Of a DNA stretch of 64,000 nucleotides, positions 3,179 through 37,499 are shown in pieces. Each line of letters opens with the position of its first letter. Position 1 is the first letter of the stretch. Both the position numbers and the translations under genes were made by a program. A model generated the notes under the pieces. That model had not been told where the DNA came from, did no database searches, and saw only the letters and a list, made by a program, of their open reading frames with translations. Source of the stretch: an uncultured Alphaproteobacteria bacterium (GTDB taxonomy: Bacteria; Pseudomonadota; Alphaproteobacteria; HIMB59; GCA-002718135); assembly GCA_902635455.1 (NCBI GenBank), contig CACPNW010000001.1, positions 5,214-69,213 of the forward strand, given 5' to 3'.

Positions 3179-4077
3179 TGTTTGGCTTAAATAAAATAAT
3201 TCCAACAAACTCAAATTATAATTTTTTAATTTTGAGAAGAAATTTTTTAATTCTTTCTATAGTTTTTATTATTTTTTCAATTTTTTTAATATTTTTTAAA
3301 GGTTTAAATTTTGGAATTGATTTTAAAGGAGGAACACTTATTGAAATCCATACTCATGATAATGTTTCTATTGGTGAGTTAAGAAATATTTTGTCACCAA
3401 ACTTTAATGATTTATCTTTACAAGAATTTGGAGATAAAAATACGATTATTATAAGATTACAAAATATTAATAATCAAGAAAGTATAGAAACAATTAATAT
3501 TGTTAAAAACTTAATAAATGAAAAGGTAATTGAGTTTAGAAGATCTGAATTTGTAGGGCCTACAATTAGTTCTGAATTACTTTGGAAAGGCTTTCAGGCG
3601 GTTTCTTTTTCATTACTAGCTATCCTAATTTATATATGGCTTAGATTTGAATGGCAGTTTGGTTTTGGTGCAGTAGTAGCTTTGACTCATGATGTTATTT
3701 TTACATTAGGAATATTAGCTATTTTTAATGTTGAATTTTCATTATCTACAATTGCCGCAATTTTAACTATTGCAGGCTACTCTATTAACGATACGGTCGT
3801 TATTTTTGATCGTGTTAGGGAAAATTTAAGAAAATATAAAAAAATGGAACTAGTTGATCTTTTTAATTTTTCTATTAATAATACATTATCAAGAACTATA
3901 ATGACTAGTTTAACGACCTTATTAGCTTTATTTTCTTTATTTATCTTTGGTGGAGAAGTTATAAAGCCTTTTGCATTAACTATGATTGTAGGTGTTTTTA
4001 TTGGAACCTATTCTTCTGTTTTTATTGCGGTCCCAACTTTATTAATTTTTAAGTTTAGACCGCAAGATGATGATTAA
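3178..4077 (+). CDS. secF: protein translocase subunit SecF
   Basis: 299 aa with a GIDFKGGT motif and a C-terminal multi-TM block. Its start overlaps the secD stop (TAATG). Confidence 0.95.
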   Translation: MFGLNKIIPTNSNYNFLILRRNFLILSIVFIIFSIFLIFFKGLNFGIDFKGGTLIEIHTHDNVSIGELRNILSPNFNDLSLQEFGDKNTIIIRLQNINNQESIETINIVKNLINEKVIEFRRSEFVGPTISSELLWKGFQAVSFSLLAILIYIWLRFEWQFGFGAVVALTHDVIFTLGILAIFNVEFSLSTIAAILTIAGYSINDTVVIFDRVRENLRKYKKMELVDLFNFSINNTLSRTIMTSLTTLLALFSLFIFGGEVIKPFALTMIVGVFIGTYSSVFIAVPTLLIFKFRPQDDD

Positions 4078-34428: not shown

Positions 34429-35379
34429 ATGACAGAAAACAATCAAAATATTAAAGCAATAATTTTAGTTCTTTTGGGTATGACTGTTTTTGCATTGCAA
34501 GATACTTTAATTAAAATTATTTCTGAAACAACGAGTATTTATTTAATTTATTTTATTCGCTGTATTATAGGTTTTTTTGTTATACTTATTTATTTAAAAT
34601 ATAAAAAAAGAAAAATAATAATTAAAACATACTATCCAATTCTAACTATTTTGAGATCTTTTGCATTTTTTTTTGGTTTTAGTCTCTACTATTTTTCTCT
34701 TTCTAAATTATCTTTACCTGTTGCAGTAACATTATTTTTTGTAAGTCCTTTTTTTACCTCAATATTCTCTATGTTTATAATGAAGGAAAAAATTGGTTTA
34801 CGAAGATGGATTGCTATTATTGTAGGTTTTGTTGGAGTTTTTTTAGTTATGGATCCAGATTTTTCAAATTTCAATATTTATTCTGCTTTTCCTGTTATTT
34901 GTGCTTTTTGTTATTCTTTTACTATAATTATTCAAAAAAAAACTGCTGATAAAGATAATGTTTTTTCACAAATTATCCATATTTATATTTCAGCATTTAT
35001 TTTTGCTATTATTATAAAGGTTTTCATTCACTATAATACTTTTAGTCCTGAAATTATGATGGAATATAAATCTTTACTTGCTGAATGGAAAATAGAAAAT
35101 TTGAATGTATTTCTTATGTTAATAGGTGTTGGTTTTACAGGTGTAATTGGTTTTCTATGTTTATTTTCAGCATACAATATGGGTTCACCACCTTCTATAG
35201 CTCCCTTTGAATATATAATTATTATATGGGCTTTAATAATTGGATGGCTCTTATGGGGAGACACTTTAAATTTAAAAGGCTCAATAGGTTTAGTGTTAAT
35301 AGTGTCAGCAGGTATTTATACTTTTGTAAGAGAATCAAAATTAAATAAACAAATTAGTATAGACAAGCCATTAAGATAA
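34429..35379 (+). CDS. DMT-superfamily (EamA) transporter
   Basis: 316 aa with about 10 TM segments in two EamA-like halves. Confidence 0.85.
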   Translation: MTENNQNIKAIILVLLGMTVFALQDTLIKIISETTSIYLIYFIRCIIGFFVILIYLKYKKRKIIIKTYYPILTILRSFAFFFGFSLYYFSLSKLSLPVAVTLFFVSPFFTSIFSMFIMKEKIGLRRWIAIIVGFVGVFLVMDPDFSNFNIYSAFPVICAFCYSFTIIIQKKTADKDNVFSQIIHIYISAFIFAIIIKVFIHYNTFSPEIMMEYKSLLAEWKIENLNVFLMLIGVGFTGVIGFLCLFSAYNMGSPPSIAPFEYIIIIWALIIGWLLWGDTLNLKGSIGLVLIVSAGIYTFVRESKLNKQISIDKPLR

Positions 35380-35439
35380 TTTTTTGCACAAGTTATTAAC
35401 ATAATATTAAGATAAAAATTTTAAATAGATAAATAAATT

Positions 35440-35538
35440 ATGATTATTGTTTGTTTTTTAAGATTTATAATATTATATTATTTTTACTTATTGCACGCAA
35501 AGGCAATAAGTAAATTGATTAAAGGAAACTTTAATTAG
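35440..35538 (+). CDS. candidate 32-codon hydrophobic mini-ORF (leader peptide or small membrane peptide)
   Basis: ATG 35440 to TAG 35536-35538 encodes MIIVCFLRFIILYYFYLLHAKAISKLIKGNFN. It overlaps hairpins 1 and 2 of the structured region and has no clear SD. Confidence 0.25.
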   Translation: MIIVCFLRFIILYYFYLLHAKAISKLIKGNFN

Positions 35539-35600
35539 TTTATATCGGGAGGAAATGCACGATATAGAAGAAAGACCTAGCTTGCTGGGTCTTTTTTTTT
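35483..35600 (+). promoter_or_regulatory. structured RNA element: three stem-loops plus an intrinsic terminator, class unknown
   Basis: Hairpin 1 is 35483-35494/35503-35514 (12 perfect bp, loop ACGCAAAG). Hairpin 2 is 35518-35535 (7 bp, GAAA loop). Hairpin 3 is 35541-35566 (7 bp, loop GGAGGAAATGCA). The terminator then ends 16 nt before the deaminase ATG. Confidence 0.5.
35571..35600 (+). terminator. rho-independent terminator
   Basis: Stem AAAGACCTAG/CTGGGTCTTT with one G-T wobble and loop CTTG, followed by a T run ending at 35600. Confidence 0.7.
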
Positions 35601-36198
35601 GTATAAGTACTATTTAATGAACTATAACTTCAAAATAATTTTAGATAAAATATTAAATGAGTTAATACCATTAACAGATATTGGTGTTTCAAAAGGAAAT
35701 AAAATATTTGGCGCTTTGATATTAAAAAAAAATGATTACTCTACTGTTGTGGTAGATACAAACAATGAAACTGCTAATCCTCTATTTCATGGTGAAATTT
35801 CAACCATAAATTCTTTCTTTAAATATAAAGAAACAATAAATCCCAAAGATTGCTTATTTATTAGTTCTCACGAACCTTGTTCTCTGTGTCTTTCTGCTAT
35901 TACCTGGTCAGGTTTTGATAATTTTTTTTATTTATATCCATATGAGGACACAGAAAATGTATTTAATATTCCACATGATCTTAAAATTTTAGAAGAGGTT
36001 TTTTGTATTAAAAATGGAAATTATAACAAACAAAATAATTACTGGAAAAGTTATGAAATTCTCAAAGAAATCACAAAACTAGACAATCAAGAATATCAAC
36101 TATTAAAAGCCATAATTACTAAAATTAAAGCAAAATATGATAGATTATCTTCAATTTATCAAAAAAATAAAAATAATAATAGAATTCCACTAAACTAA
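35599..36198 (+). CDS. cytidine/deoxycytidylate-type (CDA-fold) nucleoside/nucleobase deaminase
   Basis: Zinc motifs HGE and PCSLC (H[AG]E...PCxxC). The likely true start is ATG 35617 (MNYNFK...), because the TTG at 35599 lies inside the terminator T run. Confidence 0.8.
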   Translation: MYKYYLMNYNFKIILDKILNELIPLTDIGVSKGNKIFGALILKKNDYSTVVVDTNNETANPLFHGEISTINSFFKYKETINPKDCLFISSHEPCSLCLSAITWSGFDNFFYLYPYEDTENVFNIPHDLKILEEVFCIKNGNYNKQNNYWKSYEILKEITKLDNQEYQLLKAIITKIKAKYDRLSSIYQKNKNNNRIPLN

Positions 36199-36232
36199 TC
36201 TACAAATTTGTAATATAAAGATATTTATTATT

Positions 36233-36369
36233 ACGGGAGATACTGCTTTAATGCAGAGCCGAAGGAGCAACGACCCGGAATCTCTCAGGCAAAAGGACCG
36301 TTAAATAGACTCTGGAAAAGAGTTAGGGCTCTACCGAAGGAGTAAAAACTCTCAGGTAAATAGACAGAG
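36233..36369 (+). promoter_or_regulatory. tandem glycine riboswitch
   Basis: Two aptamers each carry the conserved cores: GGGAGA...GCCGAAGGAGCAA...CTCTCAGGCAAAAGGACCG and CTCTGGAAAAGAG...CTACCGAAGGAGTAA...CTCTCAGGTAAATAGACAGAG. They sit directly upstream of gcvT. Confidence 0.9.
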
Positions 36370-36374
36370 GGGTA

Positions 36375-37499
36375 GTGAAGGAGCATGGTTTGACACTATT
36401 ACCTCAGGATATTCCTCTAAGAGATTTTCATATTTCATATGGTGCAAAAATGATCCCTTTTGCAGGTTTTAATATGCCTATTAATTATAAGTTAGGCATC
36501 ATTAATGAAAATAAGAATGTAAGAAATTCATCAGGTATTTTTGATGTAAGTCACATGGGGCAAATATTAATAAAAAATACAGATGAAAATATTAAAATAT
36601 TAGAAAAATATATTCCTCTAAATTTAAATAAAATTATTAAAAATAGAAATTATTATTCATTTTTATTAAATTCAGATGCTGGGATTATAGATGATATTAT
36701 GATTTCAAAAATAATTTTTAACAATGAGTTATATTTTTTTATTGTTTATAATGCATCTAGAAAAATAGAAGATGAAAAAATATTTTTAAATACATCAGAG
36801 AGTATACTTCTTAATAATAATTGTTTATTTGCTATACAAGGCCCTGATTCACATAAAATTCTCAATAAAAAAATAAATATTTCTGAAAACATGAATTTTT
36901 TAGATATAATTATTACAAATTATAAGTCAGAAAATATTTTAATAAGTAGATCTGGTTACACGGGTGAAGATGGGTTTGAAATTTCAATTCCAGTAAAATT
37001 TGCAGAAAACTTTTTAAAAGATCTAATTAATGATAACAAAACTATATTATGCGGTTTAGGCTCTAGGGACTCATTGAGATTAGAAGCTGGATTAAGTCTT
37101 TATGGAAATGAGTTAAATGAAAATATAACACCTATTGAGGCTGGGTTGACTTGGGCATTAGATAAAAATAGATTAAATAAAAGTTTAAATGGTTTTAAAA
37201 AATTACTCTATCAGTTAGATAATATTCCTAAGAAAAAAAAAATTGGAATAATTTCAACAAATAAATCAATGATTAGAAATGGTATGAATATTGTCAATAA
37301 AAACAAACAAATCTTAGGTTTAGTAACTAGTGCATGTTTTTCTCCAAATTTAAATAAATCAATTGCAATGGGCTATATAGACAAAGAAATTAATAATAGT
37401 ATTGATCTGTATTGTGTTATTAGAGATAAGTTAGAAATAATGGAGCAAACAAAACTTCCATTCATTAAAAAAAGTTATAAAAAAGGAGGACTAAAATGA
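36375..37499 (+). CDS. gcvT: glycine cleavage system aminomethyltransferase T
   Basis: GAKMIPFAGFNMP, DVSHMG and SRSGYTGEDGFEIS motifs. The real start is probably TTG 36390, 6 nt after SD GAAGGAG (36377-36383). Confidence 0.95.
   Translation: MKEHGLTLLPQDIPLRDFHISYGAKMIPFAGFNMPINYKLGIINENKNVRNSSGIFDVSHMGQILIKNTDENIKILEKYIPLNLNKIIKNRNYYSFLLNSDAGIIDDIMISKIIFNNELYFFIVYNASRKIEDEKIFLNTSESILLNNNCLFAIQGPDSHKILNKKINISENMNFLDIIITNYKSENILISRSGYTGEDGFEISIPVKFAENFLKDLINDNKTILCGLGSRDSLRLEAGLSLYGNELNENITPIEAGLTWALDKNRLNKSLNGFKKLLYQLDNIPKKKKIGIISTNKSMIRNGMNIVNKNKQILGLVTSACFSPNLNKSIAMGYIDKEINNSIDLYCVIRDKLEIMEQTKLPFIKKSYKKGGLK

Follow-up and report, generated by a model that had tools for sequence, protein, structure and literature searches.

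A likely IMES-4 small RNA gene beside the glycine-cleavage region of an uncultured alphaproteobacterium

What kind of element occupies the 237-nt gap (35380-35616) between the gene of an EamA-family transporter (34429-35379) and that of a deaminase (35617-36198) in an uncultured alphaproteobacterium? The gap belongs to a stretch of 64,000 nucleotides (64 kb, here called the window) from contig CACPNW010000001.1 of assembly GCA_902635455.1 (positions 5,214 to 69,213, forward strand), and all coordinates given here count from the first letter of that stretch. A first-pass annotation, made from the letters alone, had pointed to four consecutive hairpins in the gap, the last of them a terminator ending 16 nt before the deaminase ATG, and to a 32-codon open reading frame (ORF). 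It had offered three readings: a transcription-terminating riboswitch of an unrecognised class, leader-peptide attenuation, or an independent small gene for a membrane peptide with type I toxin-like features. We consider it likely that the gap holds something else, a stand-alone gene of the IMES-4 small RNA family, with its own promoter and terminator and a non-coding product of ca. 115 nt.

The RNA in the gap and its relatives

What settled the identity of the RNA was a scan of the entire window with the Rfam 15 covariance models at their gathering thresholds, a check that the first-pass annotation had itself proposed. Positions 35487-35566 of the + strand match RF02037, the IMES-4 RNA motif, with 100.4 bits (gathering score 48, E = 1e-15), and they cover model positions 1-80 of 80, so that the copy is full-length. 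The runner-up family in the gap reached 25 bits, where its own threshold is 111. Fourteen further copies from relatives, the most divergent included, scored between 73.8 and 102.7 bits against RF02037. Hairpins 1-3 of the gap are IMES-4, an already catalogued small non-coding RNA family that Rfam types as "Gene", and the element is a rediscovery of this family and not a new class of regulator. The motif was reportedly described from marine metagenomes by Weinberg, Perreault, Meyer and Breaker in Nature in 2009, and a parallel description by Shi, Tyson and DeLong, in the same journal and year, is said to have come from a metatranscriptome survey. The family is reportedly abundant in marine metatranscriptomes and, to our knowledge, had no known host when it was first described. 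Within the modelled 80 nt we see no difference from the catalogued motif, with the same three hairpins, the same loops (CACGCAAAGG, GGAAAC and GGGAGGAAAUGCACG) and the same marine origin, and the window has all three conserved loops exactly (ACGCAAAG, GAAA and GGAGGAAAUGCA). What is added here lies beyond the model, namely a promoter, a terminator hairpin, a fixed genomic address (AnmK or EamA on one side, and the deaminase, a glycine riboswitch and gcvTHP on the other) and a host lineage. The parts of the RNA are the following.

35486-35600, + strand: predicted IMES-4 transcript, ca. 115 nt, from the RF02037 match, the fold z-score and the identity among lineages; both ends are inferred (predicted start to end of the U-tract)
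35487-35510, + strand: hairpin 1, 8 conserved pairs, loop ACGCAAAG; 98.5% of cells paired, compensatory changes in 4 of 8 pairs
35512-35541, + strand: hairpin 2, 13 pairs (35512-35524 with 35529-35541, two of them G-U), GAAA (GNRA) tetraloop at 35525-35528; 88.3% of cells paired, compensatory changes in 11 of 13 pairs
35542-35565, + strand: hairpin 3, 6 pairs, or 7 in the window, around the 12-nt loop GGAGGAAAUGCA (35548-35559); 100% of cells paired, compensatory changes in 2 of 6 pairs
35566-35572, + strand: A-rich single-stranded linker AGAAGAA, purine- and A-rich in all lineages, varying in sequence and by 1-2 nt in length
35573-35600, + strand: hairpin 4, the intrinsic terminator (stem, CUUG loop, stem, U9); 95.5% of cells paired, compensatory changes in 5 of 8 pairs, at the base

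When folded, positions 35486-35600 give precisely the four consecutive hairpins of the first-pass annotation, with a free energy of -43.1 kcal/mol; shuffled sequences reach -18.3 +/- 2.9 kcal/mol (z = -8.57), and not one of 200 folds as well. Some of the details had to be corrected. Hairpin 1 is indeed a perfect stem of 12 pairs in the window (TTTACTTATTGC at 35483-35494, loop ACGCAAAG at 35495-35502, GCAATAAGTAAA at 35503-35514), but only 8 of the 12 are kept in the family; the additional TTTA/TAAA pairs are specific to the window and in competition with the hairpin-2 base, and the predicted start of transcription falls downstream of three of them. Hairpin 2 has the GAAA tetraloop that had been described, on a stem of 13 pairs and not of 7. 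The 7-bp stem and 12-nt purine-rich loop of hairpin 3 are found as annotated, at 35541-35566 (TATATCG at 35541-35547 with CGATATA at 35560-35566, loop GGAGGAAATGCA at 35548-35559).

Relatives of the locus were collected in two ways. A search pattern that combined the two large loops was run on bacterial and archaeal contigs, one genome per species, and returned 79 stretches, of which 74 were true loci, one per genome; the other five (L006, L028, L061, L069 and L076) were chance matches, GC-rich and from other phyla, and were dropped. Since a search of this kind presupposes that the loops are conserved, a second set was gathered through homology of the deaminase protein alone, by fetching 80 metagenome loci and searching them with a 115-position covariance model built on the genome set. 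In 43 of these 80 loci IMES-4 was found on the + strand, upstream of the deaminase. As for the 37 without the RNA, 27 are from other lineages, with 37-68% G+C, 4 have 79 nt or less of upstream sequence, and in the remaining 6 a minus-strand binding-protein gene runs off the end of the contig, in the place where other loci hold the gene that separates the RNA from the deaminase. In other words, every low-GC locus fetched by its deaminase and with enough upstream sequence carries IMES-4, and the deaminases of the RNA-bearing metagenome loci are only ca. 57-69% identical to that of the window. The pattern was not found in the viral contig collection.

The structure is supported by covariation in these relatives, which the first-pass annotation had also suggested examining. 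Among 42 distinct genome sequences, 94.3% of the cells fall in standard pairs; sliding the partners by 1-3 columns lowers this to 31-43%. Compensatory changes occur in 22 of the 35 pairs and across all four helices (17 of 27 pairs in helices 1-3). Compared pairwise, the lineages share on average 85% identity in the RNA and 40-65% in the flanks. Strong constraint on the loops is seen in the protein-anchored set: that of hairpin 1 reads CACGCAAAGG in 33 of 35 sequences found via the neighbouring protein alone (the variants being ACGUCAAAAG and ACGUUAAAAG), the tetraloop of hairpin 2 is of the GNRA type in all 35, one of them GCAA, and the motif GGGAGGAAA of hairpin 3 is invariant (35 of 35). The + strand is fixed by the many G-U pairs, by the T-tract and by the scores of the 115-nt model (100-138 bits on the + strand, 16-30 bits on the other). 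A minus-strand reading of the hairpins was ruled out by the G-U pairs and these scores. Promoter-like matches on the minus strand, where the antisense RNA gene of a type I toxin-antitoxin system would lie, number 22, with 24.6 expected by chance.

Promoter and terminator of the unit

Upstream of hairpin 1, to which the sequences of the relatives were anchored, two short boxes stand out.

35451-35456, + strand: -35 box TTGTTT, of the form TTG(A/T)(T/A)N in 18 of 20 divergent lineages, with a T-rich tract before it
35474-35479, + strand: -10 box TATATT, of the form TAnnnT in 20 of 20 divergent lineages, its distance to hairpin 1 varying by no more than 1 nt

The spacing of 17 nt between the two is constant, with a spacer sequence only about 40% identical. 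This arrangement suggests a conserved promoter of the sigma-70 type, from which transcription is predicted to start at ca. 35486, about 7 nt past the -10 box and one base before hairpin 1. Some 75-100 nt upstream of this predicted start there is a further block, TTGCACAAGTTATTAACATAATATTAA at 35384-35410, that is kept across clades as TTGCACAnnTTATTAACA with a second TAT(T/C)AA(C/G)A ca. 12 nt on, and this is so whether the upstream gene is AnmK (- strand) or EamA (+ strand). The stretch 35396-35410 of the window reads TTAA-N7-TTAA, which is the spacing of a CtrA box, and other clades deviate from it. The block may be the binding site of a regulator.

At the other end, the terminator of the window (GACCTAG-CTTG-CTGGGTC at 35574-35591, then T9 at 35592-35600) stops 16 nt short of the deaminase ATG at 35617, just as first annotated. 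Hairpin 4 is outside the RF02037 model, yet it covaries, which makes it a part of the conserved unit. Its base changes from G-C to A-U in 18 sequences, and its top, CCUAGCUUGCUGGG with the CUUG loop, is near-invariant, a U-G pair being retained in 39 of 42 sequences. The core has a free energy of -8.6 kcal/mol, which becomes -16.8 kcal/mol once extended by A/U pairs. A simple terminator scan missed this hairpin; folding and covariation support it. An antiterminator was sought by folding the 74 distinct RNAs one by one as nascent transcripts that stop short of the terminator's 3' arm, and none was found: the 5' arm was fully unpaired in 58 of the 74, and the mean gain from pairing it elsewhere was -0.2 kcal/mol. 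As no antiterminator pairing competes with it, the terminator should fire unconditionally.

Genomic address and host lineage

The gene next downstream of the RNA in the window, and outside it, is the following.

35617-36198, + strand: deaminase of the cytidine/deoxycytidylate type (Pfam PF00383, E = 3e-10)

This protein has the HxE...PCxxC zinc motif and matches the Pfam domain dCMP_cyt_deam_1, but no NCBIfam family. A conserved stretch of ca. 80 residues, with IPLN as its last letters, extends the C-terminus. GC-rich metagenomes of non-marine origin hold homologues at 48-57% identity, and there the RNA is absent. Of the 72 genome loci that are informative, about 65 have the deaminase as the first gene downstream. 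On the upstream side, most genome loci have AnmK (- strand) and the others EamA (+ strand; 17 genome loci and the window), and IMES-4 is always found beside a glycine riboswitch and the gcvTHP region. In the window, the riboswitch aptamer (RF00504, 66 bits, 36224-36310) begins 25 nt past the deaminase stop and precedes gcvT (36375-37499), gcvH and gcvP; a single aptamer is called here and in most relatives, and two in L107.

What stands between the RNA and this cluster varies. In one clade the RNA and the deaminase are separated by a convergent (- strand) gene for a PBP_like_2 solute-binding protein. This is so in at least 11 loci where the RNA is in view (L044, L051 and L077, and from metagenomes L103, L110, L116, L119, L124, L126, L128 and L161), and in six more the contig ends inside that gene. 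In this clade the gene ends within a few nt of the IMES-4 terminator, which, with an A-tract on one side and a U-tract on the other, may work in both directions. In L019 and L035 an FKBP gene takes the place of the deaminase. In L004 (AG-897-D18; 3255-3586) and L071 (AG-893-I03; 1888-2216) the deaminase has been lost and IMES-4 is present as two units in tandem, both complete with a promoter and a terminator of their own; the terminator top of the first copy differs, having a GCAA loop, and the second copy ends ca. 49 nt before the glycine riboswitch. The distance from the U-tract to the deaminase ATG, 16 nt in the window (35601-35616, with no obvious Shine-Dalgarno sequence), is 12-17 nt in L086, L087, L090 and L093-L095 and ranges from 23 to 131 nt in other clades. 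We regard IMES-4 as an independent gene that the strong synteny of these genomes holds in position.

The hosts of IMES-4 appear to be uncultured members of the HIMB59/AEGEAN-169 order (SAR11 subclade V). The genomes found with the pattern are mostly single cells of uncultured Alphaproteobacteria (AG-...), together with HIMB59-LRMED-199, MarineAlpha5 bins and a few metagenome-assembled genomes (MAGs) labelled "Pelagibacteraceae". One of the single cells, AG-891-K05 (L034), belongs to the largest clade in the locus set and is the reference genome of the GTDB family GCA002718135 in the order HIMB59 (PMC10734472). MarineAlpha5 is related to HIMB59, and several "Pelagibacteraceae" MAGs are HIMB59 relatives (PMC8879329); HIMB59 is in turn synonymous with AEGEAN-169 and SAR11 subclade V (PMC10308909). 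The closest matches to the RNA and deaminase of the window come from two Tara-type metagenome contigs (97-98% identity), and no species representative matches exactly. No cultured strain, HIMB59 and LSUCC0245 included, matched the strict two-loop pattern. The G+C content of the window, ca. 26% (24.5-28% along the entire 64 kb), is at or under the lower end of the published ranges for AEGEAN-169 (27.0-32.5%) and SAR11 (27.6-35.9%) (PMC10308909).

Mode of action and alternative readings

If the gap is a stand-alone gene, transcription would start at the foot of hairpin 1, the RNA would form its three consecutive hairpins, and the fourth, with its U9, would end the transcript unconditionally. The product would be a discrete non-coding RNA, made independently of the neighbouring genes and acting in trans. 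Because the single-stranded loops are the invariant parts, they would be its working surfaces, that is, ACGCAAAG in hairpin 1, the GNRA tetraloop in hairpin 2 and GGGAGGAAA in hairpin 3. Most likely they would bind a protein, or the anti-Shine-Dalgarno region of the ribosome as a decoy, rather than pair with the ribosome-binding sites of mRNAs; a decoy seems likelier than a classical antisense mechanism since GGGAGGAAA is Shine-Dalgarno-like and of the opposite sense to CCUCC loops. The A-rich linker and the U-tail resemble the end by which many small RNAs bind a chaperone. A bolder proposal, that we put forward as a long shot, is that IMES-4 is a mimic of a Shine-Dalgarno sequence and start codon, whose GGGAGGAAA(UG) loop would decoy the 30S anti-Shine-Dalgarno or a translational repressor and so exert a global translational control in these genome-streamlined bacteria of the HIMB59 order, while its strong promoter would feed the deaminase by read-through and tie the RNA to the glycine-cleavage neighbourhood.

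Known RNAs provide some parallels. The AbcR (alpha-r15) and alpha-r14 small RNAs of Alphaproteobacteria also have their own promoter, a length of ca. 100-120 nt, conserved hairpin loops, an A-rich linker, a Rho-independent terminator and a U-tail. However, their loops are of the anti-Shine-Dalgarno kind (CCUCC/UCCC) and pair with the ribosome-binding sites of mRNAs, whereas IMES-4 has the opposite sense, GGGAGG, and shares no sequence or Rfam similarity with them; since the sense of the loop is opposite, a mechanism of the AbcR type is unlikely. Along similar lines, the CsrB/RsmZ sponges expose GGA/AGGA motifs atop hairpins, as IMES-4 does in hairpin 2 (AGGAAAC) and hairpin 3 (GAGGAAA), but IMES-4 has only two or three of them and no Rfam similarity to these RNAs, and no CsrA was seen in the 64-kb window, which is weak evidence. 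CsrA is uncommon in Alphaproteobacteria.

Several observations weigh against a stand-alone gene that acts in trans. The start, the end and the abundance of the transcript are inferences, and the decoy idea is drawn from a resemblance of sequence alone. Complements of the hairpin-3 and hairpin-1 loops, sought as possible targets in the window, occur at chance frequency, and a simple motif search of the same 64 kb gave no Hfq- or CsrA-like gene, a result that says nothing on the rest of the genome. Moreover, all 117 loci have IMES-4 upstream of the deaminase/gcvTHP cluster and in the same orientation, and the 12-17 nt between terminator and ATG in the clade of the window leave no space for a separate deaminase promoter, so that a role in cis via read-through would be possible. 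We also looked in the window for copies of GGAGGAAATG and of the terminator motifs, which are no commoner than expected by chance.

Two of the points against a trans-acting gene, the constant upstream position and orientation and the short distance to the ATG, would favour a cis-acting leader, either a riboswitch or a protein-dependent attenuator, that controls read-through to the deaminase and perhaps also to the gcv genes, and the unusual invariance of the apical sequence of the terminator would fit it as well. IMES-4 does resemble terminating riboswitches, of which the glycine riboswitch 600 nt further on is an example, in that a structured RNA and then an intrinsic terminator precede a gene of the same orientation. 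However, it forms three separate hairpins with conserved terminal loops and no multi-helix junction, nothing competes with pairing of the terminator, and the downstream gene is variable: the convergent binding-protein gene intervenes in one clade, FKBP substitutes for the deaminase elsewhere, and complete units stand in tandem where the deaminase is lost. Rfam, too, types the family as a gene. We consider such a leader unlikely. Of the riboswitch originally proposed there remains a conserved structured RNA with a terminator, but neither the riboswitch (there is no antiterminator, and the deaminase is not always next) nor the unrecognised class, which is RF02037. A different matter is whether a stand-alone small RNA gene could also serve its neighbour. 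With only 16 nt between U-tract and ATG, the deaminase in the lineage of the window is probably made by partial read-through of the terminator, and it is possible, if somewhat doubtful, that the IMES-4 promoter is there the only one of the deaminase, in a small RNA-mRNA operon with a leaky terminator; this would be compatible with an independent IMES-4 gene. The gap of 12-17 nt is too small for a promoter, and no convincing -35/-10 pair was found across the terminator by inspection of the sequence, where the promoter scan lists none either; a candidate overlapping the terminator (TTGCTG ... TATAAG) was rejected for its spacer of only 14 nt. Against it, the terminator looks strong (7-8 pairs plus U9, and the energy of the extended stem given above), the gaps are wider in other clades, and there could be an unrecognised internal promoter, the promoters of these organisms being uncharacterised.

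The peptide readings depend on one reading frame.

35440-35538, + strand: 32-codon mini-ORF, a chance frame and no gene, present in the window only and starting upstream of the promoter

This ORF exists as annotated and the N-terminal half of its product is hydrophobic, features that led to the proposals of leader-peptide attenuation and of a type I toxin-like membrane peptide. However, hydrophobic frames are to be expected at 26% G+C, and amino-acid conservation, which the first-pass annotation had recommended checking, is not to be found: in the 74 other distinct loci there is not a single ATG ORF in this frame, and in most of them a stop lies two codons before the hairpin-1 loop, where the open stretch starts. 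The ATG (35440) is upstream of the conserved -35 box, and the residues that do appear conserved ("...LLHAKV...KGN") are the translation of the conserved RNA loops. Nor did the nascent folds of the 74 RNAs offer alternative structures for attenuation. A second small ORF, from an AUG in the hairpin-3 loop, is broken as well, with the AUG missing in L151, a stop after two codons in L101, L104 and L113, and frame shifts from 1-nt indels in the linker. We give practically no credence to a leader peptide or a toxin; what survives of the third original proposal is an independent small gene with its own terminator, but a non-coding one. It is also very improbable that the RNA is a mere 3' untranslated region and terminator of the EamA transporter gene, which it follows in the same orientation both in the window and in 17 of the genome loci, given that most genome loci have AnmK on the opposite strand upstream of an unchanged RNA and that the RNA has a conserved promoter of its own.

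With this, IMES-4, an orphan family since 2009, gains a host lineage (the HIMB59/AEGEAN-169 order), a complete transcription unit and a fixed address beside the glycine riboswitch and gcvTHP. Host, unit boundaries and address together make targeted work on IMES-4 possible.

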